Virus genome (UHGV): UHGV-0228215
Strand: one strand, 5' to 3'
Length of the DNA: 55,667 nucleotides
Source: a virus
Every line of letters begins with the position of its first letter. Position 1 is the first letter of the stretch. Positions 13,250 through 39,235 of the stretch are shown here, in pieces. The translations under genes were made by a program, and so were the position numbers. The notes under the pieces are model-generated. The model worked only from the letters and a program-made list of their open reading frames with translations. It did no database searches and was not told the origin of the DNA.

Positions 13250-13411
13250 CTGTGTTTCTCGTTATGGAGCCTTGCGGGCTCGGTGTTTCTATATCGTTGC
13301 CACAAAATAAACCATACACACCCGCTGTTTTTGCCCGCCACTGCACCACTGCTGCGCCGCTCGCCCTTTTTCTGTATCTTTGAGTATCAAACTCATAAAG
13401 GACCACTCCGT

Positions 13412-14054: not shown

Positions 14055-14056
14055 AG

Positions 14057-14110
14057 ACGGCAGTCGCTGCAAGACCTTACGATCTTACAGCGACTGCCTC
14101 TCCTTACTCT
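14057..14110. terminator. Bidirectional hairpin terminator between convergent genes
   Basis: 11-bp perfect stem GGCAGTCGCTG (14059-14069) pairing with CAGCGACTGCC (14088-14098). Lies between the plus-strand HTH gene and the 3' end of the giant minus-strand gene. Confidence 0.6.
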
Positions 14111-14117
14111 CGGAGCC

Positions 14118-17100
14118 TTACCTCAGCTCCCGGAATTGCTCTGTCAGGCGATCTATCGTCGGGGCGACCTCCTCTTTCGTCACCGTCCCCTTGTCGATCT
14201 GTTTCAGTAGCGCCTTCGTCTCCAGCCACGTGACGTAGAGCTTCTCGTCCTTGGTTCCATCCTCCCAGATCTTCTCCGTGAGTTGCTCTCCGGTCATCCG
14301 AGGTGCCAGCTCACTGGCACGCCTCGTCATCTCCTTGTACCGCTTGAGATCCTTTCCCTCCTTAGCCTTCCGCAGGTTGCTCATCGTCTGCTGTCGGCTC
14401 CGGTAGAAGTCCATAAGCTTCCAGTAGCTCCGATCGCTATCAGAGTAGTCTTTCTCCTGCTTAGTTAGGACGTTGACGATCTGTAGCTTTCTAAGCTCCG
14501 ACAGGTCTCCACTGGAAACGGCAGAGACACTCGTGGCAACATCCGCCAGTGTCTTCCCTACACCTGTAGTATAGCCCTCAAAGACGTGCTCGATCACGCT
14601 CGGGTTAAGCCACTTATCATCGGGGAGAATTTTGGTCCCGTCTCGGCTCATCCGATCGTTTCTCTCAAGCGATCCGCCCATAGCGTACCAAGCAGCATCT
14701 GAAATATCTCTGTAGATCTGCTTCGTCCGTTTCTTCCCGAGCGTCCTCTGAGCGATCTGTCCCTCCTGGCTCTTGACGAATGGTTCGTGGTAGACAGGAT
14801 TGCCCATAAAATTCATATTGAGGCGCACGTCTGCGACTGGCTGTATAGCAGTAGGCATTATGTCACGGACTACCTTAGTGGTATTGAGCTCTACGTTCCC
14901 CGTCACATCGTCCCACTCAACGATATTAGAGAGAGAAGCGGCTTCGTTAGGCAGTAGCTCACCTATGAGGTATTGCATTCCGTCAATGACACTTCCTTGC
15001 CAGTCTTTCTTCCCGGCTAATGCAAGAGCCATCTGTACACCTGTCCCCCAGAAGCCACGGAAGCCCTGCGGGAGTGGTATCTTGACGTCTCCGATACAGA
15101 GGTTGGTCATCATCTCCCACTCTGTGAAGGCACGCTCGTCATCCTTGTCCGGAGCTCCAAGAGCGTAGAGCAGTCCTTGCGCAAGACCACCGGCAAAGAG
15201 CGTCCCGCACCATACAGCAGCAGGCTTTCCGAGGCGGACGATCTTATTCGTTCCTTGAATGCTGGCGTTCCAGAATCCGAAGAGGGATCCGAAGACACCG
15301 GCAAGTGTTCCCTTACGATTAAAGTTTACCGTCAGCTCCTTGGCGTGCTTGGCTGCCTCTTTGCTCGAGTAACCACGCTCTCGGCTGGTGACATACTCAG
15401 CGAAGCGGGTGTTAAGCTCGCTCGCCTCTGTGAGCATACCTATGCCCTGCTTGAGTCCAAAAGCATTCGCTACGCCGTACTTGCCATTGACAAACTTCTG
15501 TTTTAGGCTCGGGTCGCTCATCTCCTTCATCGTCTGACGTATCTTGACGACATCGGGGAGGAAGCTCCATCCGGTGGCGGCACCCTCATCGAAGAATTCC
15601 TTTAGGTAGGTGCCATACTTCCCCGACGGATAGGTGCCATCGCTATAAGCGTCACTCATCGCATACTTCAGCACAGTCTTCTGCACCTTGGCGTAGTTCG
15701 CCATGAAGTCTCTCTGATAAGCCCACCCAAAGTCTGAGACGTTACTGATCAATGCCGTACCATAGTCACGCAAGGCATTAGTAACTGCGAAGTTAGGGTT
15801 GTATTGCGTCATCAGCGCAGACATGAAGCGGGTGGCTTTAGAGACGAAGTTAATCGCTCCCGCTTTTTCAATATAGCGTCCGACGCTTCGGTAAAACCTC
15901 GTGTCTTGATCCATAGAGGGGCGCCCATTTAGAACATCAGCCACCAGCTCACCGCGATACTGAGGGGAGAAGTGGATCTGTTGCTCCACACCATCTTTAT
16001 AGACCTTGACCGTGCGCCGTGACGTCTCTTCCTGCTCCCTTGAGTCTCCTCTTAGTGGGGTTGGATCTCTATAGAGGATCTCAATGGAGTTATTTAGATC
16101 GCTGATCTTGTTGCTGATCTCTTTGCTCTTAATCCCATAGACATAGTCTGCTGTCTCTCCCTTGTCGTGCGACTGATCAAGGCGCTTTTGCTCCATACGT
16201 AGTTTTGCAACCTGCCGTCTGACGTCTGCATCGTGGCGAAGCTCCTCTATGGTCGGTGCTTGCTTGGAGGGCATATATATCGGATTACCCTTCTCGTCTA
16301 CTCCGGACTTCCGGTAATAGGTCTCACCGATCTCAAGGACACCCCTCCGAGCAAGTTCCTGCTGGTGCTGTGTCACCCATTCGTAGAGGTGCAGCAGATC
16401 CTGATTACGTACGACACGCATAACGGTGGTATTCATAATCGCCTGCATATAGGCGATAGGATCTCCAGACAGGCTCTGTCGCCCCTCTGCCGTCATCTCC
16501 ACTCGCTCGTATGCATTGCGGTCGCTCTCCTCCGTTATCTTAAAGCCACGCTGAGGAGCGTAGTATCTCCGCGGACTTTGCGTGAGGCTGCGATACTGAT
16601 CGTCTGTCATCAGTCCGGCACCGTGCAGTCGGTCTATAGACCAGCGGGACATCTTTCTCATATTGTCACAGAGTACCTCGGCATTGGCTTTGCCTACCGA
16701 TGCCTCAAAGGACGCTATGTAGGCTTCCGGGGTGATATGGTTACTTGACTTGCCAAATTCCGTAACCACCTTCTCGAAGCCTTCTCGTCCACGACTGACC
16801 AGCCCGAGTTGCTCGCACTCTACGATATCCTTTGCCTGGAAGTAAAGAGATACCTTGTCGTATCCGTCTGCACGCTTAATCGTTTTCGTTTCGTTCGTGT
16901 CCTCATCAGTAAAGGTATAGGAGACATCCATCACCTTGTCTAATAGCTTCTGCTCACGTAGGTCACGTATGCGATCCGTCAGTTTAGTTACAAGCGGCTC
17001 TACCTCCTGTTTACGTATGTTCAGCTCTCGAGACGATTGCGTCATCATATCCTGATAGATATTCTGTTCCGGCGTCATCCCTATACCCATTCGCTCCATC

Positions 17101-20100
17101 TCTTTGCAGAAAAGCTCTACTGGGCGGGCGCTGTCTACCATATACCTGATGAAGCGCCCCTTCGTGGTGACTAAGGCATCCATACGCTTCATAGAGCTAC
17201 TGAGGTAGTCTCTGTAGTTCCTATTGTACTCGTGCTGGAGCTGTGCTACCTCGTACAGGCTCATTCCGTCCGTGATCCTTGGGGGCTGTGGAGCCCTTAG
17301 GTTCTCCTTGTGCGCTCCCGTGCGGAAGCGCACGCGTGGGTCGGCGTAGTGCCGGCTCATCGTCTCGGCATACTCAGCCACAGACTGAGTGGGGCGTTTT
17401 TCAGGAGTTGCGGGAGCAGAGGGGAGTTCCAGCAGGTCTGCCGTACTCTTCCCCGTCAGGTCCTCCGAGCTGTACCACTCCCCGTCCCACTGAGGATTGA
17501 TCGGGTCGGTCATACTCTTCGGGTCGGTCCGCTCAGTCCTCCTGAATCGAATGTGTTCAGTGATCTTAGCGTCTTTCTCGTTGAAGATCACATAGCACTC
17601 CCCGTCACGTCGTCCGTTATAGTGTATGCCGACGAAGCCGGCTTCATTAAGCATTTCACTTGTCCACTGAGCCGCTTGCGAGGGGCTGTCTGTATACTCT
17701 TTAAGGAGGTAGTCGGACAGAACTTTGTAGAGACTGCCACCTGAGAGAGTATTCCACTCCGGGTAGTTATTTGCGAAGTCTGAGTAGAAGCTTTCGTCAT
17801 ATTCGCTGCCGGATTTCTCCTCCATGGTCCGCTTTATGGCTGATGCCTGTTTCTCGGATAGTGGAGCATCCTCTTCAAGATAGTTGCTGTCGGAAGGATT
17901 AGGGATCTCCACAACGTATTTGTTGTGAAATGGTCTCACATCTTCCTCGATCCTATTCTTGTAGAAATCCACAAAGTCATCCCACCTTGTGTTAGCGTCT
18001 TCCTGGCTATCATATAGCTCATCAAATGCACTTCTGTCGCTATAGAGACGTTCAAGCGGTGAGATAAAAGTGTTTCCGACATCTCCTTCGCCGTCGTTAT
18101 AGAGGTCAAGGATCATCTCTGCCCAACGCTTCTGTTCGTCAGTATATCGAGACAGGTCATCCTTGGGGATCGTCATTTCAGGCATTTCCTCATAAGGGAT
18201 GAGCTGCTCTGTCTGACCATATCCCTCCAGATCCTTCACGCTAAAGTAACTTCCCCAGCCGTGCGCCTGAAAGCCCTCTCCACTGCCCATAAAGCGGTGG
18301 TCGAAGCCAAGACGCTCTCCCGTCTCAGGGTCGACGAAGGACCCATCCGCTTTCTTCAAGAGGTGGGGGCTGTTATGGTACACCCGCTTAAAGCGAAGCA
18401 CGTCGTCTATCGTGGTGTTCTTCGGCGTGGCGTTCCGCACAAAGTCGATCGCCGCCTCTGCTGCGCTGGATACGTCTCCGGATTGCTCAGCTCTGCGAAA
18501 GCGGACGTCTGCTCTGGGAACTGCATTCTTCGGATCCGTGAGCATAACGTGATGAGCCAATGTTGCCTCTGGGTTCTCTGTCTGTGTTAGACCAAGAGCC
18601 TTCCATTCACCAAAGTCAAGACGGTAGTACACATTCGAACCATCCGTTTCAACCAAGTCGATGCTTACCTCTTTTGCTCCAAGGGCATACCCCGCTTCGA
18701 GCATACTCTTCAACGAATGCCCACGGATGGTGATGAGGTTCATCCTATGGGTCTTATTGTCAAAGGGAGTGGCTCCGTTGGGAAATGGATCGGGATCCTC
18801 TACCAACAACCTCTCCCCGACCTCTACCCCATAGGGGTAAAAAACCGGCTTCCCATTTTTGCGAGGTCTCGCATATGGGGTCTCCTTAGACAGTTTATCG
18901 TACAGCTCTTCTATCGGCAGGTTACGGATGGACCTAATTTCATTACCGGATGAATATGCTATGTCTGTCAAGCGACTAACGTCATATAGGGGGTCTTCTC
19001 CTACCTCTTTTGTCTGTATTGAGACGTTAGAGTTATGGGCTGCATTTGGAGTTTTCCTGACGAAAAATTCAGACCCGTTAGAATACCACTCCAATCCCTT
19101 ATCGGCATTTCTATGCACGATAGAATACTCTCTGTCCAGATCATCTGTGAATCTATTCCTGTCGGTGTCGTAATAGTCAAGCTTTATCTTTTCATAGAGT
19201 GGCATAAAAGCCTTGACGTACTCATCCCCCTCTTGCTGGAATTGCTCAAACCTTGCCGCTAAGATGTTTTTACGTGGGCGCTTAGCCTTCTTGATATCCT
19301 TGACACCTGGCGTCTCTTCTACAGCTGGTTTAGCGATAGGGACAACTCTCGTGACATCTGTTTTGGAGACCTTGTCGTACCAATCCATGTCGCCGGTGTA
19401 CTTGTACAACGACGGGAGATCCCTTGCTCCATTGTAGAATGATTTGAGGTACGGGCGGACACGATCGCCCATATCAGTTACCATTGCATCTATGAAGGCT
19501 CGGAATGATCTCGATCCAGCCTCGATATGGAACGTAGCGAGCTGGCGACCAATAGACATAAAGTCCACGTCACTTAGAGAGGCATTTTCGTCTGCTATCC
19601 TATCGATGAGATCGATATATTCATCCCTTGTGATTATAGTGTTGTTCGCCCCATAGTCGTCTGTCCCAGAGCGGAATCGATAGCCATCATCTTCATCATC
19701 GGTGCCGTCTTCCTCTGTTTCTGAGAAGTCTATAGTCTCCTCATCACTATCAAGGGTTGCATACTTCTCCTCCTTCGCTCTCAGCTCCTCATCCATCTGC
19801 TTGGTGAGCTCAGCCACTCGGCGCTCTGTCTCCTGCAATTCCTTCTCTTCGGGGAATACCCGATTGCTTGCAAGTCGCTCTTCTGCGTACTTCTTCTCCG
19901 CTTCCTTTTGGGTTACCCTATCCGTGAGAGCATTAAGCTGTCTCTCGCTCTGTTCTCCAGAGATGATATCATTGATGACCTTCTCAAAAGCATTAGGGAT
20001 TGATACTGTCCCGTCGATTGTCTTCCTGGATATGCCAAGGTCGGGACACTCAAATTGTACGCTCTTCAGTAGAGAGACCTTCGCATATCCAGCGTCATCC

Positions 20101-23100
20101 TGACCAACCCCTGAGATCATCACAAGTGATAGTGTAGCCTTGTGCCCATCAAGAGAGATTGGGACGTCCACATTAACCGGATTGTCAGAGGGTCTGCGCA
20201 TAAGCTTGTCGGCGATCTTAGTCGTACCTTTAGACTTAGCTCTCAGTAGCTTCATCGCCTCCTCTACATTTGGTGCGGACACTCCGTCAATCTTGATATT
20301 GTGTACACGTCTATCCGGGAACACCTCATCCAAGCGTGACACAAAAGACTTTATCTTCTTTATGTAGTCTTTTGTCTTCTTGATGTCCTCCGCGTGGATC
20401 TTTACCTGGCTGTTGAAGTAGACTTGGTCTCTCCCCCAAGTGGTCTTCTTGTTCCTCAGCCGCTTCAATTTGCGCTCCTCGGACATCTTAGCCATAGCAC
20501 TCTCTACACCGGACAACTGAGCAACGGGGTTATCAAAAATCCCCTCCTCCTCTTGTTCGATCGTGCGTGAGCTGAGAGGATCATTCAGTATCTCCCCTCC
20601 GTTCATTATGCTGTCAATGAATGCTGCCTTAGTCTTCAGCCGCTGGTAAGAAGTAACGTCAAGGGTATCTTTCACTCCAAAACGAAGGATCCTGACGGTC
20701 TTTCCCCAATCTTTGTGAAGGTTCCCCTGCCGAAGTATTCGCCCATTACGCTGCATATAATCCATAGGACGCTGAGGGGCATCAAGGTGGATAAGCGTAT
20801 GGAGCCGACGTTGGATATTTACCCCTACGCCAAGTGTAGGGGTTGTTCCCATAATGATGCGTATAGCCCCGCTATTTACCTTGTCAAAGATCGCCTGCTT
20901 CTTCTTATCGGTCATCCCGGGACGCATTATCTCTATCTGGTCTTCTGGGATACCCTTTGCGACAAGCTTCGCTTTTATATCCTCAAAGACATTGAAGCCT
21001 GAGACCTTGTTCTGGTACTTGTCACAGAAGAGAGCCGCTGTTCCCTTGTATGATTTGGTCTCACTATAGGTGCGATACAGCTCGTCTACAGCCTTGTTCA
21101 GCTTGCTGTGTGGGTCATCAATGTTTTGATTTATCACAAGCCGCACGTCAATAGCAGCCGCACTTGCTTTACCAAACATCTGGAGCGGTATATAGGATTT
21201 TTCCCTCTTCTCGCTACCGGACATATTCTCAAACTTCTCCAATTCGCTCCTTACGTAGTTCATATATTGGTGAAGGATAGGAGTCTGGTCTAAGAATACA
21301 TCTTGATCCTGCCCCATCTCTATCTCGGGGATTTGGTCATTTACTTGTCCGACTTCTTTCGTGAGTACCGTGTCGCTTACGCTGGACCATATACGGATGA
21401 GCTCGGGGAGACCATCATATCCGGCGAAGCGAGTGTTGGCTTTGAATTTCCCACTTGTCGTGAATTCTAACATCGTCTGGATCTTCCCGAAGTTGTTCAC
21501 GAAGTCATCAAAGTAGTAGATACCCAAACGGCGCATATCCGCTTCGCTCATCAGGTATTTCATAAATACCCAGAGTTCCGATGCGGTATTGCTGATTGGA
21601 GTTCCTGTCGCCATCACGACATTTCTTCCTCCATTCTTCTCTTTGATAGTCTCTATCTTTATCTGGACATTCTCTGCCTTCTTGCTTGATGTCCCTGTCA
21701 CGCCCTTTATCTCTCGTCCGAGTGCGGTGGAGAAATTTAGGTTCTTATAGTTGTGCGCCTCATCGATTAACAGAGCGTCAATGCCGAGGTCCTCAAAGTA
21801 CTGCTCCTCGTCGACCGCCTTGTCAAGCAACTTGTCTATTTGTGCAGAAACATTAGAGATCTTCTTTTGTTTCGACTTCTCTGACATCCTCTTCACCTTC
21901 GCAAGAGCCATATCGCTCTTTTGATCCGATACCTGACGTCTGAGTTGTCTGATCTTTTGCGAGATACTGTTGTTCTCCAAGTTGTCCTCTGATTGCTGGT
22001 CTTCAAGGACGGATATAACGTGTTCTATCTCGTCAATCCGCTTCAACTTGTATGCCTCCTCCCTTGCAGGACTATTTGCGATGAGCTCAAATGTGCTTTG
22101 AGGGACTATAACCATATCCCAGTCCGCATACTTTATCTTCCCATAGAAGCGCATACGTCCTGACTTTCCTCTATCAGTATCATCAAGGGCTAATATCTTT
22201 GCTGCAGGATACAGCTTCTTGGCACTGCTCGCAAACTGCCCAATGGTGGCGTTTTGCACGACAATCATTGGTTTTTTTGCGATCCCCAATCGGCGCATTT
22301 CCATTGCGGACGATATTAGGGTGAAGGTCTTACCCGTCCCCACTTCGTGCGCAAGCATTACGCTCTGATTCATCGTCTTCAAGACGGCTCTCTTCTGATG
22401 AGGATATAGCGATATGCCATTAGCACTTCCCTCGAATAATGAGGGAAGCATATTGTCAGGTATCCTTGGCGTGACGTAAGAGTTAAAGGTATTGTTGTAC
22501 ACCTCCTCTATCTCCTTTGCGACTTCCTGTTTTTCTTGCAGATAGTCAGACACCCACGACACATAGTCTTCACGAAGATCCTCTATCTTCTGACGTGCAA
22601 GGTCGGTTGCTTCTTTGTCTCGGACGGTCTCCCGATCCCCGTATTCGTTCTTATAGGAATAGGAGAAGTCTGGTCGGCCATTGTTTAGGGCGTAAACAAC
22701 AAGTTCAGAGAATGACACCGTCTTGTGTACGACAGAGCTACGGACACCCATATCAGCGTCTTTATTAGCTATGTCCATACGCTCTTGCCAGCTCAATTCG
22801 GACATAGGAGATATGGTCATCGTCCATATGTCTCCTGTGTGATTGAAGGTCGCCTCTCGCCCAGTCTTTTCCTTTAGATAATCGTCAAGAAGCTTTGTTG
22901 GAGCCCACGTACTGCCAAGTTTTAGGGGGACTAAGTGAGCCGGTATAGAAGGTGGCACGACTGCCCTAAGCGCTTTCAGATTGCTCTCAAAGCGCTCACC
23001 ACCGTCTCTACTTAGTGCCTCCTCGGCTATCTTGATCTTCTGTCGTATATCTCCACTTTGATAGAGGTAGGAGACAATGAGCTCTCCCCCATCAGGGTCT

Positions 23101-26100
23101 TCGTAAACTAATCCCTCAGTGAGGAGCTGACGCCTTGTCGTCTCTTTCTCCATACCAAGGCTCTCAGCTATGAAGTCTACGTCTACAGAGCCATTCTTAT
23201 AGAGACTGACCTGGATCCCATCCGTTAGATTGCTGATCTTGTACTTCTTCGGACCGGCGATCTGGCGAGACCTAAATATCTCAGTCTTTTCGTAGCGCTT
23301 GATCGGACGACCATTCTTGTCGTCCTTATCCGTTAGTGTCACATCCTCCAGCGCGGCTACGGAAGCGAATTCGCTATCGTTGTTCTTGATGAAGCTAATT
23401 CCTAAGTTGTCGTTTAGGTAGCCATACTTCCCAACGAAAGTATCATAAGCCGTGTTCAACGCACGGATAAAAGTCTCTATCCCCTCATCGGTGGTATTTT
23501 CCAGCTGGTATCGTATGAGGTTGTCCAGAGCGGACTTTAGTTCCACGTAGTCACGCACTGCCTCCTGCTTGGTATACCCCCGTACCTTATTCTCATTAAT
23601 CCCCTCAAGAGGAACGGCAAGTCCCTTGTCACTACAGCAGATACGACCAGAAGAATCAATTAAGATACTCCCCTGTATCTTATCTGTCGAGTCGTAGTCA
23701 GCCGAGGTTTCCTGCTGGCGTATCGCCGGCTCCTGCTTTATTGAGCCAAGAGAAGAGACCCAAGAAGACAACGCTCTATCTTGATCAACAGACTGAGTCG
23801 GGTAGACACCAATCGCCATTGGTCTATAGGAGGTATCGCCCTGATCAAACCCAATAGATGGCTCTCCACCCATAAACTCAGGGTGATTAACGAAGTAAGT
23901 ATTGATCGTGATGGGAGTGTGTGTATCACTATCATAGGTGCCTGCAGACATTTTATAGATAGAGGTTCCGCTCACGTCTATAGCGTGAGGGTCTATCTTG
24001 CCATTTACACGCTTTCTTATGATGATGATGTCGCTCGTGACCTTTGTGCCTCCAAAGGTTTCGTTATTCAAACGAAAAGCCCCAATCACATCTGCAGAGC
24101 CACTTGTGGAGAGCCAATTCTTTAGCGTTGAGCTCTTGTCTAATGTATTTGACGAGGTGATGAAGACACCGAGACCGCCGGGTCTGAGTGCTCTCACGTT
24201 CTTTGCTATAACAAAGTCGTGGAGGTCGCGGAATAGTCCACTGAGATCCTTATTCTCCCTATCGTAGACATTCAGTCCGGAAACAAAGGGAACATTAGTG
24301 ATTGCGAGATCTATGCTTCCGGGAGCGATTGATACATTCTGAAAGCCTGAGACATCGACTTTAGCATCAGGATAGAGCATATCAAGGATATTTCCTGACA
24401 GATCGTCTATCTCCACGGCGTGAATTGTGGATACCCTGTTTACATCATCCGGGATCGCTGCAAGTATGTTTCCTATGCCGGCACTGCTTTCCAGTATCTT
24501 TCCTCCTCTGAATCCTAACTTGCGTGCCGCTGCCCACAGACTGTTGATTATGGGGAATGGCGTGTAGTAGGCAGAGTTTACCGACATGGCTGCGCTATCA
24601 AAGCCGTCTTTTCCCAGCTTATCAATTAGCGTCTCCCGATATGCCCCTACGTTGAAGTACTGTCCGAGACCACCCCAACCACTATAGGATGCCAATACTT
24701 TCTGCTCCTCTTTCGTCGGCGTGCGTCCTTCTTCGGAGAGCTTCTTGTATAAGTCTATGGCATTGATGTTTGCCTTATATCGTGCAGCAGGGGTCGTCGG
24801 CTGTTCGCCTTCCGTTACACGATAGTTATTTTGATTCTTCGGGTGCAGAGCTTCACCCACCGGCAGAGCACTACCGGTGTCGTCTTCTCTCTTGCGGTCT
24901 TGGATGGGCTTCTGCCTCTCGTTGACCGACGACTCTTCCCTCCCTGAGGAGTGTCGCTCTTTGGGATTGGGGGAAGAGGTCTTTTCTACCTGCTCATTAT
25001 CAAATAATTCAAGTAGTCCTCTGCCTCCTGTCTGGTCATAGCTCCGATTTCCATCATTGCTTCGATCCACTCGTTTCGGCTCAGCTCTTTGAGCTTCTTC
25101 CCGTGCTTCTCCTCCCACTGAGCGGTTCTGCGGGCTCTCTCTTCGGCTATTGACGTTTCCATATGAATTCTTTTCTACCGTGGTTTGAGCGAAGTCTCCT
25201 ATTGACACTTGCCCTGATGACACTAAAGGTACCACTTTATTGATTTCTCCAAAAAGCGAGGGTTTGAGCGTCTTCTTTGGTGCCTGCTTCGCTTCTTGCG
25301 TTTGGGGAGATCCTTCGGTCTCGCTCTTCTTTGTGGTGCTCTCTTGTGTGTCATTCGTGAAGAGACTCGCCTTCTTCACAGTGCTTTGTCCTTCAAGGGT
25401 CCTCGGGGTCCCATCCGCATTAAACAGCCCTTGGCGCACTCCTCGTGGATCGGTCTCCCCAAATAAGCTAGGACCATTAAATGCAGTATTTGCCCTCTTG
25501 AAGCGGATGGTCGGCTCTTCAGAGCCTGTGGTTGCAGACTCATCAAGGAGCAGTTTCCCGGGGTCGTAGGATTTCTCCACCCCTTTCAGTAACTTTGCAA
25601 CAGCAAGCCGTTCAGTTGAAGTGTGCTTGTTAGTGGAGCTGGTTAGTGCATCGCTCGTGGAAGAGCCACTTATAACCAGCTCCATGTTTGTTACCATATA
25701 GTCATACGCCCTGTCGTCTGCGTTGTATCTTTCGTGCAGAGTCGTCTTTACTCTGTATAATTGCCCATCTATCTCGATCGCACCATACAGACGATGTACA
25801 AGCATATTAGGGTTGTTCACCCCATTGTCTGCTGATCTCTGACCATTTACCTTCCCATAGTCGGGATGTGTTTCTGCGAGAATACTCCGATTGATTACAC
25901 GAGGTAGTACTTTTAGTGTTGCCAAGTGAACCCCCAGATTATCACTTCCTGTTGTAGAAGACTCAGATAAGTATTTTTCAATACTCGTGCCGTCTATCAG
26001 GTACTTAAATCCATCCGACATATGCTTATGGTACCAGTGATCCTTCACTATTCGACCCTGAGCCCACACCATCGCTTTTTCAATAGCCTGTAGTCCGGTG

Positions 26101-29100
26101 CCGGTAAAAGAGTGTCTCTCTACGTGTGTTACTTTCACGCTTGACTGATTAAGATCAGGAGCCACCAATCCCTTTTGCTCAATGGCAGCGTCTCTTAGTC
26201 GCGCAAAGTCAGCCGCACTCCTGTTGCTCCTAAAGCGCACCTCTGCTCTCTCTGGAGAAACCTCAGTAGCCACCTCCTGCTGTCGCTCTGCACGCTTCTG
26301 TAGGTTCTCTGCTGAGCGTCTGAGGAGGTCGTCAGCCATCATCTCTGCCGACTGATCGATCTGCTTCCCGGAGAGACCGAAGACCTTACGGAAGAAGTCC
26401 TTGATAGACTCCCATACCGTCTTCTTCGTGATGCCGCTCTCCGCACGGTGAGCGATCCACTCATCCATGGCAATGCGCACCTGCACTCTGTCCGCAAGGT
26501 CCTGAGAGCCGTCGCAGTACTCCTTCATCGCACGAAGCACCTCCTCTTCGCCAAGCTTGCTGGCTATACCATCCAGCACCTGGTTGTATCCTACTTCGCC
26601 GAGCAACTCCCTACAGCCATAGTGACCTACCGCCTCGTGCAGGAAAGTCGCCCTCACGTCATCCGCGTCGACATTAGCCGGCAGGTAGATGTGGACGGCA
26701 TTATCGCCCTTGTAGAACCACCCCTTGACTGAGTGCGTCTCGTCGAAGCCCGCACGTACCTCATCGGGCAGGGTGGACATATTCTCGTGGGGATTCGTCG
26801 GTACGCCAAGCGTCCGAGCCATATCCATGGCGGCGGCGTACTTGCGCCTCTCTTCAGTGATCCGATCCGCCAGAGCGTCCCGCCGTGAACGGAAGTCCTC
26901 CGCCACGTCTCTCCGGAAGCGATAGTGCTTCTCACGACCTGACGGCACCTCATAGACACGTCCATAGACCGCCTCTGCCGCTCCTGCCTTGGTGTCGGTG
27001 GGCTGAGAGGTGGGTATGAGGGACTGTGTCTTGGCACCCGTCTCATTCGCTCCCACAAGGTCATAGTACTTATTGAGTGCGCCGGCTATCTGCTCCTCCG
27101 TCTGCGTCTGCATGGAGGCGGCAAGGAGCTTTGCCAGCGAGGATGCCTCCCCGAGGTTTGTCTCCAGCTCGCTACGACCAAAGAGACTAACCTTGCCGAG
27201 GATGAAGATCTTCGCACTCTCAAAGTTCGTCAGTCCCGCAAAGTCCGGATCCTGTCTTAGGCTGTCCCATACAAGGAGGGCATCCCCGAGATCGGGCGCA
27301 AGGCTCGTCTCAAAGGATGCCTGACTATCCCTGTAGAGGAACGTCGCCAGACCGTTGCGAGCCGAGGCGGGCAGGCGGTAGAAGATATCCATCGCCCGTG
27401 GTCCGATCACGTCCGCCAGCTGATAGAGGGCTACGTCCTTTAGTGCCGTCTTAGCCTCTGCCGTCACGACACGCTTGCCCTCGCTGTTGGTCTCGAAGGC
27501 ATTCTTATACTGGGTGTCGGTGATGTAGCCGTTCTCGAGGAGGAATTTCTGTCCCTCCTCCGCATTGCGGTTGAGCATGTTGTCCATCTTCGCACTCAGC
27601 TCCGCCCCGTTTGCTCCCGTGCGGTTGAATATGCGGTTGAAGAATGAGACCAGCATGGACTGACCGCTCTGAGGGTCGGTGTCGCTATTCAGCTCCTCGC
27701 CTACCGTCTGAGCGTTCATCGTGTCCGCCCCTGCGCTCTCCAAGTCTGTCTGCCCTCGGTGCCCGAGGCGAATGGCTTCGCTGTCCGACACCTCCGCCAC
27801 GTCTACCGCCACGGGGTGCGCCATAGCGTCTACCTGCTCCGCTGTCATCCCGTACTCCGAGGCGTGAGTCTTCAGGTACTCCTTGTAGAGCTCTGCGCTC
27901 TTGGCGTGCCGCTCCTCCCCGTCATACATCGTCTGGAGGGCGTCCGTGCGGTTGTTGCCCTGTATCACCTCTCCGCGACCATTGACGACCGGTGCGCCGG
28001 TATAGGCGGTGATGCCTCCCGTGATCTCGTCCGGGCGAATGTTGCTCGCTATGCGGTCTGCCGCCGTGGAGCTGAGCCCGTTGTCCGCCCTGTCCTTCGG
28101 CTGCGCCTCGGGGATGAAGTGCCTCGGGTTCATCCGTCCCTCCTTATGGCTCGCCTGTAGGCTGTCCGCCTCCACGATCGTCCGTTTCACCGGGATGCGC
28201 GTCTCCCCGGGACGTTGGCTGAAGGCTCGCTCTGCGTCTGCGTAATGCTCTACCGTCATAGGCTCCTGACGGTACACTACTGCTCCATTCACAAGTCGTG
28301 CGCCACGGGCTCGCGCCTGTCGTGGCGGATCCTCCGTATACTCTCGCACGGTAGAGCCCTCGGCGTTGCGCTCCAGCTCCTCACGCTCCCTCCTGCGCCG
28401 CTCATTCTCTAATCGGATCCGCTCCTCCCGCTCCTTTTTCTCCTGAGCCAGCTGCCGTTTCTCCTCTTCGCGCCTCTGTCGCTCTTCCGGGGTAAGTGCT
28501 TCCTCCTCTGAACGTTTCTGTGCTTCCAGTTCCTGACGTGCCTGCTCCTCGGCGGCGCGGACATAGTCATCGTAGAGACGGTATTCCTCGGATGCTTTGC
28601 GGAGAGCCATCCGCTTCTCCAAGTTGCCGAGGTCACTCTTCACCTCTGCCTCCAGCTTCGACCTTTCCGCACCGACCTTAGACCGTCTCTGCCGTGCCGC
28701 CTCGACGGCTCCGCTCTTCCCGAGAGCCGCTTCGTTTACGCTCAGAGTCTGCTCTGGTGTGAGAGCCTTCAGGTCAAGTGCGCCACTCTTGGACAGCGGC
28801 AGGGACGCGACGAAGTCCTCTCCGTACAGCTGACCGAGATAGCGGATGAAGTCATCCGGTCGCTCGCTCATCAGCTTAAGCCCGTCCACCTCGCCCTCTC
28901 TCGTCCGCGGGAGGGACTGCATAAAGTCGTCCGTGGTGTCGCCTGCGTCCTCTGGGGCATTCTGTGGCGCCTGCTCCTGTGATAACTGCTCCTCTGCCGC
29001 CTGCACCTCGGAGCGAAAGGCTGTCTCCGCCTCGTCCAGCGAAGCTTGCACCATGTCGAGGTAGTCCTCTGCCACTAACTGTGGCGAGGAGAGGTCGTCC

Positions 29101-31583
29101 ATCTGCACGATATGCCCCTTCTCGTCCCCGTCGACAGACTCATCGTAGACGTAGATGGGTGCGTCGTCATCGGTAGGCAGAAGCTCCACCGTGCCGTCCT
29201 CGTTCGTCACCACCCTGACGCCACCGGTCACGTACACCTGCTTCGGTTTGCCGTCAGCGTCCGTTATGGTCGCCGAGATCACTGCGCCCCGGGCGGTCTC
29301 ATCTCCGACGACAGACTTTGCGCTCCACTCTTTCGTCAGCTCGCTCTGCATCTGAGCCATCGCCTCTTGGTGCGAACGCTCTATGGTGGAGAGACGGCTC
29401 TGCGCCGTCACCACATCGAGGATCGACTGCCGGTCGTTATCGCTCAGACTCTCGTCGCTGAAGAGCTTCGTCAGTTCCTCGGTGGGGTTTGCCTGTCCGT
29501 CCCTCAGCACAAGAGCCATCTGGTCTACCCTTGCCCTTACCTCTTCGTTCTGCCCCTCCAGCACGTCAGCGAGTGCCTTCTTGGCACCTGCAAGAGCCAC
29601 GGGGTTATTCATCTCCTCCTCGGCGACCTCCGGGTGGGTCGCCCTGTAGATCGGGCTCTGCTGCTGCTCCGTGGCTGAGAGGATCGCTCCCGCTCTCTTC
29701 TGGTTCTCCGTCAGTACCTCCTCCTTGGGGTGAAGTCCATCCGTCGCTTCGTCGTACGCCTTCTGAGACTTCTGACGCTCCTCTGGTGTGTAGTGGATGG
29801 CATCCACGACCTGATCGGCTGGGAGCATCTTCTGCCGTCCCGACCGATCAAGTACTAGGTAGCTCGACTGATCCGAACCGATCACCTCGTAGAGGTTGTT
29901 CTTCTCGTCCTGCACGATCGTCAGCCCCTCCTTGCGGTGCATGCGGGCTACCTGCCCGCCCTGTATCCCGGCACCGAAGCCACCCATAAGCGCTCCAGCC
30001 CAAGCACCATAGATTCCGTCCTTCACCGCCTGCCTTGCCACGTTAGCCCACGCCTCCTGGTCTTCCTTGCTCTTCCACACACGGTCGAGTGCGCCGCTCT
30101 GCGCCAGCGTGGTGAGGCTCTCTCCCGGACCCTCCGTCACGGCACCGCGGACGATCTGCCGTCCGGCACTCTTGACGAGAGGGATGGCAAGCGGCTTCTG
30201 TGCGTACTCGCTCAGGCTGCTGAGGCTCTGACGTACGCCCTCGTTACCGGCTATCCCCTTAGCGAGGGAGCGTACAGCCAGCTTCTGCCCCAGTCGTCCG
30301 CCGGCAAGCTTACCGATGGCACTGATGGACTTAGACGCTACCGCACCGCCGAGAGCGTCACCGCCAAACTCTGCCGCCATATAGCCGAGGGAGATCGTAG
30401 CCTTATCCTCCGGGGAGATGTAGACCCCCTTCTCAGCGGCGTAGTCCTCCATGTCCATGATTGCCTGCCCGCCCGAGGAGATCGTCTGCGCTCCTATGCT
30501 CGCCCATGAGATCGCCTGACCGACGGGAGCCGCTCCTGGGATCATAGAGATCGCCTGACCGGCAAGGGCACCGCCCACGCTTGCCGTTGCGCTTCCCAGC
30601 TCTGCCCACGTGCCTTCGGGAACTTCCGACTTACGCATGTAGTCCTTGGCTTCCTCCTTCCAGCGGACGAAGGAGTTCGCCTTATCCTCACTTGCCCCCT
30701 TCTCTCTGAGGTCGTCCCGCATAGCGTCAAGTGCGATCGCTCTCTTCTCGGGAGTGAGATCCTGCCCCATCCGCTGCATTCGCTCCTCAATTAGCTTCAG
30801 GGCGTCTGCCTGCCGTGCTTTCTTGGAGTAGTCGCCCGAGAAAAGGATGTCGTTATGCGTGTGGCTGTCCAGCTCCTTGAGGAGCTTTCCTCTCACTCCA
30901 CGGACACGCTCAAGGCTGAGGGTGCCGTCCTGCTCCATCTGATCGATAAGGTGGATCGCCTCCTTCTCGTCGTCTGAGTTGCCACCGAAGCCCTTCAGCA
31001 GGTCAGCCACGGCGATCTCTGCGCCACCGCGGATCCCTCTCAGCCCGGACACCACTCCGCCACCGAAGGTGCGGGTGGTCTTAGGACCGGTGGAGGTGGC
31101 GATCTCCGGCAGGGTGTCCTCGCTCTCCACAAGGTCTATCGGGGCGATCTCCGTCCCCCGCATACGTCGGTCGGGGTTGTAGCTCACCTCAGACGTGCCG
31201 TAGGGGTTGTACTCTCCCCTCGACGCATCCATCAAGGCTCTCTGGCGTGCCATCTCCTTCCTTGGGTCACGGGTAAAGGTCTTATTCCTCAGTGCCGCTA
31301 CTTGATTTGTTTCTGACGCATAGGGATTGAAGAAAGCCCTCTCGAAGTCCTCATACGTCCCGCCTATGCCGGCACGCTTGGAGAGCTTGTCGTATAGCCC
31401 CCGCCTGTTCGACTCCTTCTGCATGACGCGGGAGAAGTCTTGGAAGGAAAGGGGATAGGGGTTCTTCGTCTGTCGTCCCACTTCGGTGACAAGGTCGTAG
31501 AGTCCTCTGATGTCGTTGCGTAAGCTGTTGTCCGGGTTGTTATTCATAGCTGTATGGTGTGTCTTGTGAAAAGGAGTTACCAA
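14118..31583 (-). CDS. Giant multidomain polyvalent-type protein (~5,800 aa). ParB-like, HEXXH metallopeptidase, N6-adenine DNA methyltransferase and SNF2 helicase modules; DarB-like candidate injected anti-restriction protein
   Basis: Single uninterrupted 17.4-kb ORF. Tool start at 31583 is TTG; first ATG is at 31545-31547. Motifs read directly (see the giant-ORF finding for coordinates): ParB-like GNNRTDAL, HEXXH FLHEAVGHYG, methyltransferase ESSAGIGN and LAITNVPF, SNF2 motifs AHEVGTGKTFT, LLIDEAHNYKN and QRNGRILRQGN. Gly/hydrophobic C-terminal segment. Confidence 0.8.
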   Translation of the reverse strand: MVTPFHKTHHTAMNNNPDNSLRNDIRGLYDLVTEVGRQTKNPYPLSFQDFSRVMQKESNRRGLYDKLSKRAGIGGTYEDFERAFFNPYASETNQVAALRNKTFTRDPRKEMARQRALMDASRGEYNPYGTSEVSYNPDRRMRGTEIAPIDLVESEDTLPEIATSTGPKTTRTFGGGVVSGLRGIRGGAEIAVADLLKGFGGNSDDEKEAIHLIDQMEQDGTLSLERVRGVRGKLLKELDSHTHNDILFSGDYSKKARQADALKLIEERMQRMGQDLTPEKRAIALDAMRDDLREKGASEDKANSFVRWKEEAKDYMRKSEVPEGTWAELGSATASVGGALAGQAISMIPGAAPVGQAISWASIGAQTISSGGQAIMDMEDYAAEKGVYISPEDKATISLGYMAAEFGGDALGGAVASKSISAIGKLAGGRLGQKLAVRSLAKGIAGNEGVRQSLSSLSEYAQKPLAIPLVKSAGRQIVRGAVTEGPGESLTTLAQSGALDRVWKSKEDQEAWANVARQAVKDGIYGAWAGALMGGFGAGIQGGQVARMHRKEGLTIVQDEKNNLYEVIGSDQSSYLVLDRSGRQKMLPADQVVDAIHYTPEERQKSQKAYDEATDGLHPKEEVLTENQKRAGAILSATEQQQSPIYRATHPEVAEEEMNNPVALAGAKKALADVLEGQNEEVRARVDQMALVLRDGQANPTEELTKLFSDESLSDNDRQSILDVVTAQSRLSTIERSHQEAMAQMQSELTKEWSAKSVVGDETARGAVISATITDADGKPKQVYVTGGVRVVTNEDGTVELLPTDDDAPIYVYDESVDGDEKGHIVQMDDLSSPQLVAEDYLDMVQASLDEAETAFRSEVQAAEEQLSQEQAPQNAPEDAGDTTDDFMQSLPRTREGEVDGLKLMSERPDDFIRYLGQLYGEDFVASLPLSKSGALDLKALTPEQTLSVNEAALGKSGAVEAARQRRSKVGAERSKLEAEVKSDLGNLEKRMALRKASEEYRLYDDYVRAAEEQARQELEAQKRSEEEALTPEERQRREEEKRQLAQEKKEREERIRLENERRRREREELERNAEGSTVREYTEDPPRQARARGARLVNGAVVYRQEPMTVEHYADAERAFSQRPGETRIPVKRTIVEADSLQASHKEGRMNPRHFIPEAQPKDRADNGLSSTAADRIASNIRPDEITGGITAYTGAPVVNGRGEVIQGNNRTDALQTMYDGEERHAKSAELYKEYLKTHASEYGMTAEQVDAMAHPVAVDVAEVSDSEAIRLGHRGQTDLESAGADTMNAQTVGEELNSDTDPQSGQSMLVSFFNRIFNRTGANGAELSAKMDNMLNRNAEEGQKFLLENGYITDTQYKNAFETNSEGKRVVTAEAKTALKDVALYQLADVIGPRAMDIFYRLPASARNGLATFLYRDSQASFETSLAPDLGDALLVWDSLRQDPDFAGLTNFESAKIFILGKVSLFGRSELETNLGEASSLAKLLAASMQTQTEEQIAGALNKYYDLVGANETGAKTQSLIPTSQPTDTKAGAAEAVYGRVYEVPSGREKHYRFRRDVAEDFRSRRDALADRITEERRKYAAAMDMARTLGVPTNPHENMSTLPDEVRAGFDETHSVKGWFYKGDNAVHIYLPANVDADDVRATFLHEAVGHYGCRELLGEVGYNQVLDGIASKLGEEEVLRAMKEYCDGSQDLADRVQVRIAMDEWIAHRAESGITKKTVWESIKDFFRKVFGLSGKQIDQSAEMMADDLLRRSAENLQKRAERQQEVATEVSPERAEVRFRSNRSAADFARLRDAAIEQKGLVAPDLNQSSVKVTHVERHSFTGTGLQAIEKAMVWAQGRIVKDHWYHKHMSDGFKYLIDGTSIEKYLSESSTTGSDNLGVHLATLKVLPRVINRSILAETHPDYGKVNGQRSADNGVNNPNMLVHRLYGAIEIDGQLYRVKTTLHERYNADDRAYDYMVTNMELVISGSSTSDALTSSTNKHTSTERLAVAKLLKGVEKSYDPGKLLLDESATTGSEEPTIRFKRANTAFNGPSLFGETDPRGVRQGLFNADGTPRTLEGQSTVKKASLFTNDTQESTTKKSETEGSPQTQEAKQAPKKTLKPSLFGEINKVVPLVSSGQVSIGDFAQTTVEKNSYGNVNSRRESPQNRSVGGEAREEAQRAEPKRVDRSNDGNRSYDQTGGRGLLELFDNEQVEKTSSPNPKERHSSGREESSVNERQKPIQDRKREDDTGSALPVGEALHPKNQNNYRVTEGEQPTTPAARYKANINAIDLYKKLSEEGRTPTKEEQKVLASYSGWGGLGQYFNVGAYRETLIDKLGKDGFDSAAMSVNSAYYTPFPIINSLWAAARKLGFRGGKILESSAGIGNILAAIPDDVNRVSTIHAVEIDDLSGNILDMLYPDAKVDVSGFQNVSIAPGSIDLAITNVPFVSGLNVYDRENKDLSGLFRDLHDFVIAKNVRALRPGGLGVFITSSNTLDKSSTLKNWLSTSGSADVIGAFRLNNETFGGTKVTSDIIIIRKRVNGKIDPHAIDVSGTSIYKMSAGTYDSDTHTPITINTYFVNHPEFMGGEPSIGFDQGDTSYRPMAIGVYPTQSVDQDRALSSWVSSLGSIKQEPAIRQQETSADYDSTDKIQGSILIDSSGRICCSDKGLAVPLEGINENKVRGYTKQEAVRDYVELKSALDNLIRYQLENTTDEGIETFIRALNTAYDTFVGKYGYLNDNLGISFIKNNDSEFASVAALEDVTLTDKDDKNGRPIKRYEKTEIFRSRQIAGPKKYKISNLTDGIQVSLYKNGSVDVDFIAESLGMEKETTRRQLLTEGLVYEDPDGGELIVSYLYQSGDIRQKIKIAEEALSRDGGERFESNLKALRAVVPPSIPAHLVPLKLGSTWAPTKLLDDYLKEKTGREATFNHTGDIWTMTISPMSELSWQERMDIANKDADMGVRSSVVHKTVSFSELVVYALNNGRPDFSYSYKNEYGDRETVRDKEATDLARQKIEDLREDYVSWVSDYLQEKQEVAKEIEEVYNNTFNSYVTPRIPDNMLPSLFEGSANGISLYPHQKRAVLKTMNQSVMLAHEVGTGKTFTLISSAMEMRRLGIAKKPMIVVQNATIGQFASSAKKLYPAAKILALDDTDRGKSGRMRFYGKIKYADWDMVIVPQSTFELIANSPAREEAYKLKRIDEIEHVISVLEDQQSEDNLENNSISQKIRQLRRQVSDQKSDMALAKVKRMSEKSKQKKISNVSAQIDKLLDKAVDEEQYFEDLGIDALLIDEAHNYKNLNFSTALGREIKGVTGTSSKKAENVQIKIETIKEKNGGRNVVMATGTPISNTASELWVFMKYLMSEADMRRLGIYYFDDFVNNFGKIQTMLEFTTSGKFKANTRFAGYDGLPELIRIWSSVSDTVLTKEVGQVNDQIPEIEMGQDQDVFLDQTPILHQYMNYVRSELEKFENMSGSEKREKSYIPLQMFGKASAAAIDVRLVINQNIDDPHSKLNKAVDELYRTYSETKSYKGTAALFCDKYQNKVSGFNVFEDIKAKLVAKGIPEDQIEIMRPGMTDKKKQAIFDKVNSGAIRIIMGTTPTLGVGVNIQRRLHTLIHLDAPQRPMDYMQRNGRILRQGNLHKDWGKTVRILRFGVKDTLDVTSYQRLKTKAAFIDSIMNGGEILNDPLSSRTIEQEEEGIFDNPVAQLSGVESAMAKMSEERKLKRLRNKKTTWGRDQVYFNSQVKIHAEDIKKTKDYIKKIKSFVSRLDEVFPDRRVHNIKIDGVSAPNVEEAMKLLRAKSKGTTKIADKLMRRPSDNPVNVDVPISLDGHKATLSLVMISGVGQDDAGYAKVSLLKSVQFECPDLGISRKTIDGTVSIPNAFEKVINDIISGEQSERQLNALTDRVTQKEAEKKYAEERLASNRVFPEEKELQETERRVAELTKQMDEELRAKEEKYATLDSDEETIDFSETEEDGTDDEDDGYRFRSGTDDYGANNTIITRDEYIDLIDRIADENASLSDVDFMSIGRQLATFHIEAGSRSFRAFIDAMVTDMGDRVRPYLKSFYNGARDLPSLYKYTGDMDWYDKVSKTDVTRVVPIAKPAVEETPGVKDIKKAKRPRKNILAARFEQFQQEGDEYVKAFMPLYEKIKLDYYDTDRNRFTDDLDREYSIVHRNADKGLEWYSNGSEFFVRKTPNAAHNSNVSIQTKEVGEDPLYDVSRLTDIAYSSGNEIRSIRNLPIEELYDKLSKETPYARPRKNGKPVFYPYGVEVGERLLVEDPDPFPNGATPFDNKTHRMNLITIRGHSLKSMLEAGYALGAKEVSIDLVETDGSNVYYRLDFGEWKALGLTQTENPEATLAHHVMLTDPKNAVPRADVRFRRAEQSGDVSSAAEAAIDFVRNATPKNTTIDDVLRFKRVYHNSPHLLKKADGSFVDPETGERLGFDHRFMGSGEGFQAHGWGSYFSVKDLEGYGQTEQLIPYEEMPEMTIPKDDLSRYTDEQKRWAEMILDLYNDGEGDVGNTFISPLERLYSDRSAFDELYDSQEDANTRWDDFVDFYKNRIEEDVRPFHNKYVVEIPNPSDSNYLEEDAPLSEKQASAIKRTMEEKSGSEYDESFYSDFANNYPEWNTLSGGSLYKVLSDYLLKEYTDSPSQAAQWTSEMLNEAGFVGIHYNGRRDGECYVIFNEKDAKITEHIRFRRTERTDPKSMTDPINPQWDGEWYSSEDLTGKSTADLLELPSAPATPEKRPTQSVAEYAETMSRHYADPRVRFRTGAHKENLRAPQPPRITDGMSLYEVAQLQHEYNRNYRDYLSSSMKRMDALVTTKGRFIRYMVDSARPVELFCKEMERMGIGMTPEQNIYQDMMTQSSRELNIRKQEVEPLVTKLTDRIRDLREQKLLDKVMDVSYTFTDEDTNETKTIKRADGYDKVSLYFQAKDIVECEQLGLVSRGREGFEKVVTEFGKSSNHITPEAYIASFEASVGKANAEVLCDNMRKMSRWSIDRLHGAGLMTDDQYRSLTQSPRRYYAPQRGFKITEESDRNAYERVEMTAEGRQSLSGDPIAYMQAIMNTTVMRVVRNQDLLHLYEWVTQHQQELARRGVLEIGETYYRKSGVDEKGNPIYMPSKQAPTIEELRHDADVRRQVAKLRMEQKRLDQSHDKGETADYVYGIKSKEISNKISDLNNSIEILYRDPTPLRGDSREQEETSRRTVKVYKDGVEQQIHFSPQYRGELVADVLNGRPSMDQDTRFYRSVGRYIEKAGAINFVSKATRFMSALMTQYNPNFAVTNALRDYGTALISNVSDFGWAYQRDFMANYAKVQKTVLKYAMSDAYSDGTYPSGKYGTYLKEFFDEGAATGWSFLPDVVKIRQTMKEMSDPSLKQKFVNGKYGVANAFGLKQGIGMLTEASELNTRFAEYVTSRERGYSSKEAAKHAKELTVNFNRKGTLAGVFGSLFGFWNASIQGTNKIVRLGKPAAVWCGTLFAGGLAQGLLYALGAPDKDDERAFTEWEMMTNLCIGDVKIPLPQGFRGFWGTGVQMALALAGKKDWQGSVIDGMQYLIGELLPNEAASLSNIVEWDDVTGNVELNTTKVVRDIMPTAIQPVADVRLNMNFMGNPVYHEPFVKSQEGQIAQRTLGKKRTKQIYRDISDAAWYAMGGSLERNDRMSRDGTKILPDDKWLNPSVIEHVFEGYTTGVGKTLADVATSVSAVSSGDLSELRKLQIVNVLTKQEKDYSDSDRSYWKLMDFYRSRQQTMSNLRKAKEGKDLKRYKEMTRRASELAPRMTGEQLTEKIWEDGTKDEKLYVTWLETKALLKQIDKGTVTKEEVAPTIDRLTEQFRELR

Positions 31584-39118: not shown

Positions 39119-39235
39119 AGTGATCGATCTAATTGCGCCAAATATCGGACGGGGAGGGATTAGTTTTTGCCCGCGACTGCCGACACCCTGCACTGGCGGG
39201 CAATTCTCCCAGTCGCAGGGGCTTACTTTTGCCCC

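Follow-up and report, generated by a model that had tools for sequence, protein, structure and literature searches.

Virus genome UHGV-0228215, a stretch of 55,667 nucleotides (nt) that is called the window below, carries on its minus strand a giant gene (probable coding sequence 14118..31547) for a protein of 5,809 amino acids (aa) and 651 kDa. We found that this protein and its close relatives consist of conserved frames between which the cargo is swapped, that a short peptide motif, Φ-R-F-[R/K], stands at every junction between modules, and that the motif is tied to one clade of peptidases; these are the new observations. Very probably, the gene encodes an ejected polyvalent protein with a frame-plus-cassette layout and motif-marked junctions. 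Residue numbers count from the TTG at 31583, to which the mechanical open reading frame (ORF) extends.

Conserved frames, exchangeable cargo and the junction motif

We compared the giant protein with ~17 close relatives, collected from a protein database, from scans of viral and metagenome contigs and by a representative search. The relatives share three parts with the giant protein: the stretch aa 13-1788 (86-94%), the stretch aa 4361-4455 and its last ~1,100 aa, at the C-terminus. The N-terminal frame was present in all relatives of the clade, and the C-terminal frame in all relatives with their 3' end present. The latter frame, which contains the LPD38 domain, occurs as two alleles, ~79-92% or 53-56% identical, among otherwise near-identical phages, and the switch falls at the motif at aa 4678. 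In the relatives, the gene products range from 3,189 to 4,843 aa and differ in their middle cargo, which includes ART-PolyVal, MuF_C (in relative L006), PBECR5, LPD13 and LPD3 domains and extra copies resembling module M6 of the giant protein. These ~17 near-identical phages amount to a natural experiment, with the same frame, different cargo and one peptide at each cargo boundary.

A search of the giant protein for [VILYFM]-R-F-[RK] identified this peptide at aa 1554, 1782, 2026, 3968, 4360, 4396, 4678 and 4751, with one copy at every module junction. These eight copies compare with 0.45 expected, and none of 5,000 shuffles gave more than 5. From the N-terminus onwards (all on the minus strand), YRFRR (aa 1554-1558, 26910..26924) precedes M1, a HExxxH zincin-like metallopeptidase recognized by residues conserved in its homologs (26241..26909); VRFRS (aa 1782-1786, 26226..26240), where a drop in G+C content at third codon positions (GC3) starts, leads into M2, an LPD3 module (25509..26225; Pfam match at aa 1835-1959, PF18798, E 8e-8); and IRFKR (aa 2026-2030, 25494..25508) opens M3, a DarB-like cassette (aa 2031-3967, 19683..25493; PHROG 10089, 1501 bits). 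YRFRS (aa 3968-3972, 19668..19682) is followed by M4 (18507..19667), a module without assigned function that forms an independent cassette in contig L020, and VRFRR (aa 4360-4364, 18492..18506), where high similarity resumes in most relatives, by M5 (18399..18491), a 31-aa spacer between two motifs. LRFKR (aa 4396-4400, 18384..18398) precedes M6 (17553..18383), an ADP-ribosyltransferase (ART)-fold module that Pfam does not see, and IRFRR (aa 4678-4682, 17538..17552) precedes M7 (17334..17537), a 68-aa spacer rich in Pro and acidic residues in translation. Finally, VRFRT (aa 4751-4755, 17319..17333) adjoins the C-terminal frame (aa 4756-5821, 14121..17318), which matches LPD38 at aa 5490-5702 (nt 14478-15116; PF18857, E 2e-14). 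Elsewhere in the window there is a single copy, LYRFRL near nt 10042, in a 275-aa ORF of the structural module (9605-10432, minus strand); it has no acidic upstream context and is probably due to chance.

In every relative the motif is kept at the homologous junctions, where similarity switches, while its flanks vary, as in '...DAKITEH-IRFRR-TERTDPK' here versus '...DARITDH-YRFRR-TTAEEREK' in relative P0002. R and F never vary across the 26 unique instances; the residue after them is R (23 instances) or K (3), and acidic residues or Pro lie upstream. The codons of the motif vary synonymously (CGC/CGA/CGT, TTC/TTT and CGG/AGG/AGA/CGC/AAG at its three positions), which indicates that the peptide, rather than a DNA site, is under selection; a recombination site at the DNA level was ruled out on these grounds. 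Furthermore, of 11 independent clusters of similarity breakpoints, 5 have a motif no more than 15 aa away (p=2e-5, relatives pooled). In relatives L006 and L007, the Pfam domains between motifs each fall within one motif-delimited segment, with the exception of LPD13, which shares its segment with an M5/M6-like copy. The GenBank name 'PLxRFG' does not denote the same R-F motif and refers to the C-terminal 680-aa NF032893 domain of other giants.

Association of the motif with one peptidase clade

The M1 sequence FLHEAVGHYG contains H-E-A-V-G-H, i.e. HExxxH. The label HEXXH, which a preliminary description of this DNA had given it, was a misreading, and the pattern HE..H is absent from the whole protein. 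H1649, E1650, H1654, G1656 and E1708 are invariant in 148 homologs, and judged by its residues the catalytic signature of the peptidase is intact. A HEXXXH clade of these peptidases was described previously (Iyer et al. 2017), and the giant protein thus possesses the zincin-like metallopeptidase that is a hub domain of polyvalent proteins.

The motif was also enriched in a distant set of 133 proteins, representing clusters at ≤50% identity of proteins of at least 1,000 aa that share the HExxxH module. Here RFR was observed 253 times compared to 56 expected (~4.5-fold), with occurrences in 114 of the 133 proteins. Its enrichment ranked 6th of 8,000 tripeptides; the higher-ranked ones contain Trp, and several other top-ranked tripeptides are core motifs of the peptidase itself. 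Sites were absent from -80 to +120 around HExxxH and peaked at about -100 and at +120 to +160, and the sites flanking the peptidase of the giant protein lie at -95 and +133. As a control, we used seven DarB-like giants of cultured phages without the peptidase clade (JC1, POI1126, Atu_ph08, Mwe-JY07, Gerry, LASTA and P1 DarB; ~30,000 aa), in which 1 site was found versus 2.5 expected (Fisher p=0.004 for at least one site per protein). A similar bracketing of the peptidase was seen in gp68 of BF1-TP2, a cultured temperate phage of Bacteroides fragilis. This 3,633-aa giant (L025 7224-18125, PQ571263), annotated 'hypothetical protein', has four sites (aa 1548, 1754, 2259 and 2480), and its peptidase (HEVVGH, aa 2345) is bracketed by GV-RFR-S (aa 2259) and SV-RFR-E (aa 2480), at distances of -86 and +135.

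Peptidase processing of polyvalent proteins was predicted previously, without a site being named (Iyer et al. 2017), and our literature searches found no later report of a processing site for polyvalent proteins. We tentatively predict that the HExxxH peptidase cleaves at the Φ-R-F-[R/K] motif. In this scheme, the embedded peptidase would cut between the R and the F of Φ-R-F-R, after an acidic/Pro-rich stretch, and would free the ParB, LPD3, methylase-SNF2, M4 and ART units, and intact punctuation would let cassettes swap without loss of function. A hydrophobic P1' residue, here Phe, is typical of thermolysin-like zincins. More tentatively still, Φ-R-F-[R/K] after an acidic/Gly/Pro stretch could be a cleavage code of the HExxxH clade, with the giants processing themselves and the motifs serving as legal points of cassette exchange. 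The motif offers concrete candidate sites for the processing predicted by Iyer et al., and BF1-TP2 a tractable cultured system. If true, polyvalent proteins would have their first defined processing signal. Such a signal would let effector boundaries be read off the sequences of thousands of giant phage proteins that lack annotation, account for the swapping of anti-defence cassettes (methylase-SNF2, ART, PBECR nucleases, LPDs) between phages, and provide a route to engineered phage-delivered protein payloads.

Several results speak against cleavage. The contrast between giants with and without the peptidase involves only the seven controls and is confounded by phylogeny; a canonical site is missing in 38 of the 133 peptidase-bearing giants; and BKO1-TP3 and BS-TP4 carry the same peptidase clade with at most one canonical site. 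P1 DdrB was considered as an anchor for cleavage and rejected: since its peptidase (HELGH) belongs to a different clade and no RFR lies near its processing point at ~76 kDa, this only family member known to be processed lends no support. Furthermore, in the AlphaFold2 (AF2) model of M6 the first and the last beta-strand (E8-15 and E283-292) have the two flanking motifs as their outer ends. The paper on phages BKO1-TP3 and BF1-TP2 contains no proteomics and does not discuss the giant gene.

The strand ends in the M6 model would suit a role other than cleavage, which we regard as possible if somewhat improbable: the motif could be a structural or docking element, either a closing beta-strand or a motif binding DNA, portal or scaffold that tethers an uncleaved chain or orders its ejection. 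Delivery as an uncleaved chain occurs with the N4 virion RNA polymerase and with some conjugative polyvalent proteins (Iyer 2017), the ejection proteins of cyanophage A4 hold DNA by Arg-rich surfaces, and the BKO1-TP3 peptidase occurs without the motif. However, in the model of the peptidase module one flanking motif stands at the start of a helix and the other falls in a disordered linker whose predicted local distance difference test score (pLDDT) is <50; this lack of a constant structure is more in keeping with a linear motif than with a fixed structural element. Moreover, the motif flanks unrelated folds and 31-68-aa spacers, and it co-occurs with one peptidase clade, with no enrichment in giants without that clade.

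Domain content, continuity and neighborhood of the giant gene

The N-terminal frame (aa 13-1127, 28203..31547, minus strand) has no family match and is 86-94% conserved in most relatives; it is rich in Gly, Ala and Ser at aa 320-460 and highly charged at aa 990-1080. At aa 874-885 of this frame (nt ~28,930-28,960), P0001, P0004, P0023 and L024 have an insertion of ~160-180 aa, which has no flanking RF motif and is the sole recurrent indel breakpoint off the junction rule. The frame is followed by a ddrB-like ParB domain (aa 1128-1260, 27804..28202, minus strand; Pfam PF18763, E 3e-20) that contains QGNNRTDAL and is 35% identical to the ParB of P1 DdrB. At the other end of the protein, the C-terminal frame has one strongly hydrophobic segment (aa 5457-5475). 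The domains found by Pfam were ddrB-ParB, LPD3, SNF2/Helicase_C and LPD38, with PF18763, PF18798 and PF18857 above the gathering score. The isolated peptidase, methylase, M4, M6 and N-terminal frame gave no meaningful Pfam or NCBIfam matches at E≤10, phmmer comparison of both protein halves with PDB sequences gave no match, and profile searches of PDB with the peptidase and M6 alignments yielded nothing useful.

Phage-type polyvalent proteins have 2-15 disparate domains per chain and are often >2,000 aa, and the ddrB-ParB and LPD38 domains are restricted to them (Iyer et al. 2017). The giant protein has at least seven recognizable modules in 5,809 aa, and by every defining feature that can be tested on sequence it is a phage-type polyvalent protein. 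The preliminary description had placed it in the polyvalent/DarB class, as is confirmed by the Pfam domains, the match to PHROG 10089 and direct alignment to P1 DarB and DdrB. The ParB-like and SNF2 modules that it had named are likewise recovered by Pfam, the latter with its motifs intact.

The methylase and the peptidase were checked by other means, because Pfam and NCBIfam are blind to both. M3 consists, in order, of a low-complexity linker, an LPD36-like GWGGLG, an N6-adenine methylase, a connector, a SNF2 ATPase and a coiled tail. It matched PHROG 10089 ('DarB-like antirestriction') over aa ~2054-3969 and PHROG 11801 ('DNA methyltransferase', E 1e-153), and was 28-33% identical to P1 DarB by BLASTP (E 1e-17 to 1e-19) and 44% identical over 1,748 aa to BKO1-TP3 gp55, its nearest annotated relative. 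When the LPD36-like region and methylase core (aa 2251-2600, 23784..24833, minus strand) were aligned with BKO1-TP3 and LASTA, GWGG[L/I], the 'YYTP' cap and motif I 'ILESSAGIGN' were all conserved; a GWGG-type LPD36, the TP cap, motif I and motif IV are hallmarks of the DarB clade (Iyer et al. 2017). The methylase assignment is weakened by motif IV, which departs from NPP[Y/F] and reads NVPF (DLAITNVPF) here and in BKO1-TP3 versus NPPF in LASTA, and by the methylase going unrecognized in Pfam and NCBIfam when scanned alone. Pfam LPD36 gave no match at E≤10, with 'GWGG[L/I]' in the alignment where the GxGU motif of an N-terminal LPD36 is expected. C-terminal to the methylase, the SNF2-family ATPase core (aa ~3057-3660, 20604..22415, minus strand; Pfam SNF2-rel_dom, ResIII and Helicase_C at aa ~3057-3620) has Walker A GTGKT, DEAH and motif VI QRNGRILRQGN intact. 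The motifs listed in the preliminary description were correctly located (VIQGNNRTDAL, aa 1206-1216; FLHEAVGHYG, aa 1647-1656; ESSAGIGN, aa 2364-2371; LAITNVPF, aa 2426-2433; GTGKT, aa 3083-3087; DEAH, aa 3272-3275; QRNGRILRQGN, aa 3611-3621), and its peptidase and methyltransferase modules stand by alignment and structure and fail only in recognition by Pfam and NCBIfam. A second, stand-alone SNF2-type helicase of 461 aa lies in the replication module (window 41157-42542, minus strand; phrog_62, E 8e-154), and its homolog sits upstream of the portal in relative L012; with this free helicase and the one in the giant protein, the phage carries two SNF2 motors.

M6 has an ADP-ribosyltransferase fold by structural comparison, and its top structural match is an ejection protein of cyanophage A4. 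H4403, Y4446 and D4671 are invariant and E4559 is conserved in 33 of 34; these H-Y-E/D residues are putative ART catalytic positions, proposed from conservation. Pfam ART-PolyVal (PF18760) did not match M6 at E≤10, and true ART-PolyVal occurs in relatives in a separate module. The consensus of the M6 family ends in '...H-x-R-F-R'. M6 represents another unmodelled domain family common in these giant proteins, and it is a fifth enzyme-like module, which the preliminary description had missed together with the cassette polymorphism and the junction motif.

Most likely, this giant late protein, a single chain that bears several early-acting effectors, would be packed in the capsid and ejected into the host together with the DNA. 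The frame would be formed by aa 13-1554, including ddrB-ParB, and the C-terminal LPD38 region (aa 4756-5821), and the HExxxH peptidase, LPD3, LPD36-methylase-SNF2, M4 and M6 would be exchangeable cargo between them. The methylase-SNF2 block may translocate along the entering genome and methylate or shield it in cis from restriction, and the ParB-like and ART-like modules may act on nucleic acid or host targets. We infer packaging, ejection and DarB-like protection because homologs are found in virions (JC1 gp69, phi24B gp47) and because of the role of P1 DarB in shielding the entering DNA in cis against Type I restriction (Iyer 2017).

That the giant is mainly a structural ejection protein of a podophage, an ejectosome or conduit component with the enzymes as accessory passengers, appears rather unlikely, and it would be compatible with delivery of effectors rather than exclusive of it. 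Consistent with such a role, the frames account for ~45% of the chain and stay conserved (79-94%) as the cargo changes, LPD38 marks phi24B gp47, which is a proposed trans-periplasmic conduit, the protein has Gly/Ala-rich and hydrophobic segments, and M6 resembles the A4 ejection-protein domain. However, the frames have no sequence match to solved ejection proteins and only the one strongly hydrophobic segment, and the peptidase and SNF2 ATPase retain their catalytic residues, and the methylase most of its motifs.

The 17.4-kb minus-strand ORF without internal stops noted in the preliminary description is present at 14118..31583 and runs for 5821 codons from TTG, with a stop only at its end. 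The other two frames of the same strand contain 305 and 353 stops over the ORF, and from base composition the chance of zero stops in 5821 codons is ~1e-118. The coding sequence most likely comprises 14118-31547, because the examined relatives with their 5' end present begin at or near residue 13 (ATG 31547), with one exception that has a divergent N-terminus; this ATG lies 30 nt past the stop of the upstream ORF. The coding sequence takes up 31% of the window. GC3 is 0.72-0.76 in the N-terminal frame and peptidase, 0.47-0.56 in LPD3, methylase-SNF2 and M4, 0.69 in M5, 0.58 in M6 and 0.73 in M7, and the steps fall exactly at module borders. Because of its foreign base composition, the LPD3-to-M4 run is probably a recent in-frame acquisition from a lower-GC Bacteroidota phage or element. 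Elsewhere in the window, GC is below the ~0.60 background at 40001-44000 (0.54) and 50001-54000 (0.50-0.52), which suggests mosaic acquisition in these regions of the genome as well.

The sharp GC/GC3 shift across nt ~17,550-26,240 could also arise if the ORF were an assembly chimera, in which a low-GC methylase-helicase segment had been joined in silico into a ~3,500-aa gene. Outside the window, the methylase-SNF2 block was found among the examined relatives only in truncated P0001, and a viral contig scan with the block retrieved no relative. The exact DNA of the ORF junctions had no match in the metagenome contig or viral contig collections, and no independent contig supported the SNF2-to-M4 junction (aa 3968). 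A chimera is nevertheless highly improbable: the frame stays open through 8.7 kb of DNA of foreign composition, both ends of which fall exactly on the clade's junction motif; P0001 independently joins the same N-frame gene family to the methylase module, with 92% identity over aa 2015-2484; the M4-M5-M6 run recurs in the independent contig L020, with 71% over aa 3954-4456; and many further cargo swaps, likewise in frame, are seen at these points in relatives. Independent assemblies thus bear out continuity at two junctions and not over the whole length. It is just as improbable that the methylase-SNF2 block is a defence or exclusion module against competitors (of restriction-modification, DISARM or BREX type), for which the ParB-like putative nuclease on the same chain and two sets of weak matches (helicase C-domain with DISARM DrmD/DrmA, methylase with an 'orphan MTase' model) would speak: we rejected membership in a defence system, as the scores are far under the cut-offs (DrmD 33.9 versus 610 bits; PADLOC ≤32 bits), the best matches are DarB-like virion proteins, and the gene lies among head genes with no defence partner genes nearby.

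The giant gene is located between portal and capsid in the head-gene block, where it had been placed before. It lies five ORFs downstream of a P22-like portal gene (37079..39508, minus strand) and upstream of both an acidic ORF of 293 aa and the gene for an SU10-type major capsid protein (10932..12338, minus strand), and the synteny of portal, giant gene and capsid is kept in a relative. The window also contains the terminase large subunit (TerL) and a replication module. No MuF or MuF_C domain was found in the giant protein by Pfam, including a scan at E≤10. Just downstream of the giant gene, window 13250-14117 contains a single opposite-strand ORF for a 127-aa helix-turn-helix-like protein (13671-14054, plus strand). 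The same spot in close relatives (L012 21010-22597; L002 7175-8221) holds an opposite-strand Abi_2 (abortive infection) gene and two small ORFs, or a 348-aa ORF, and looks like a variable moron island beside the variable cargo gene. Searched with megablast, the whole ORF had no DNA-level match among GenBank phages. Annotated relatives of the capsid were limited to three cultured phages of Bacteroides (24-28% identity). A 94-95% identical capsid gene on two short contigs binned into an uncultured Porphyromonas metagenome-assembled genome (MAG), the sole matches in the genome collection, is a weak hint of Porphyromonas as host.

Comparison with known systems

Viral polyproteins with an embedded protease and a short consensus resemble the giant protein in layout only. 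This is a functional analogy with no sequence or evolutionary relation, between a replicase setting and a dsDNA phage virion protein for which cleavage is predicted. Among phage proteins, gp47 of Stx phage phi24B (2,811 aa; LPD5-LPD1-LPD38-MuF-C), which we set alongside by description, bears LPD38 like the giant protein; it is abundant in virions and has been proposed to be a capsid-packed ejection protein that forms a trans-periplasmic conduit. It lacks a methylase-SNF2 block and is half as large. The podophage giants of Bcep22-like/Lessievirus JC1 (gp69, 4,515 aa) and Lastavirus LASTA (4,433 aa) are encoded in virion modules and share the methylase-SNF2 core at ~30% identity, and DarB-like JC1 gp69 was found in virions by mass spectrometry (PMC9144972). 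However, neither has a peptidase of the HExxxH clade, M6 or the junction motif, and LASTA ends in NF032893 'PLxRFG/tail-700' (676 bits), to which the C-terminal 1,070 aa of the giant protein have no match at E≤10.

The nearest counterparts are likewise each encoded by one giant ORF in the vicinity of the portal gene, and their phages have a capsid of a related SU10/DUF5309 type: BKO1-TP3 gp55 ('DarB-like antirestriction', 5,553 aa; PQ571269), BS-TP4 gp3 (5,391 aa) and BF1-TP2 gp68 (3,633 aa). BKO1-TP3 gp55 resembles the giant protein in ParB (33%), the HExxxH peptidase (31%), the M4 head (40%) and the C-terminal frame (22%), but its order differs, with the peptidase after SNF2 and the M4 head before the methylase; the first ~100 aa of M4 recur in this position, upstream of the methylase, in both BKO1-TP3 and LASTA. 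Furthermore, the gene lies upstream of the portal in BKO1-TP3 and downstream of it here, and in BKO1-TP3 and BS-TP4 there are almost no junction motifs, overall identity is low and the N-terminal 1,100 aa of the giant protein have no counterpart. Size and module order had been called exceptional, a claim that did not survive this comparison: gp55 has most of the same modules, and the 149 metagenomic proteins with the peptidase module include 29 of at least 5,000 aa and 8 of at least 5,800 aa, the longest being 7,524 aa. Next to these sequences, the size and domain set of the giant protein are not exceptional. Since the class was described in 2017 and the protein is not record-sized, the giant alone is an expected find in a Bacteroidota-type podophage.

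In P1, the modules of the giant protein have counterparts in DarB and DdrB, which are head-internal anti-restriction components (Iyer 2017). DarB (2,255 aa) has the LPD36-N6A-methylase-SNF2 dyad of M3 and adjoins the portal gene, and DdrB (995 aa) combines ddrB-ParB with a C-terminal metallopeptidase, the same pairing as at aa 1128-1781 here, with a peptidase of the classical HExxH type and without RFR junction motifs. Whereas DarB and DdrB are encoded by separate genes in this myophage, both are joined with at least four more modules in the single chain described here.

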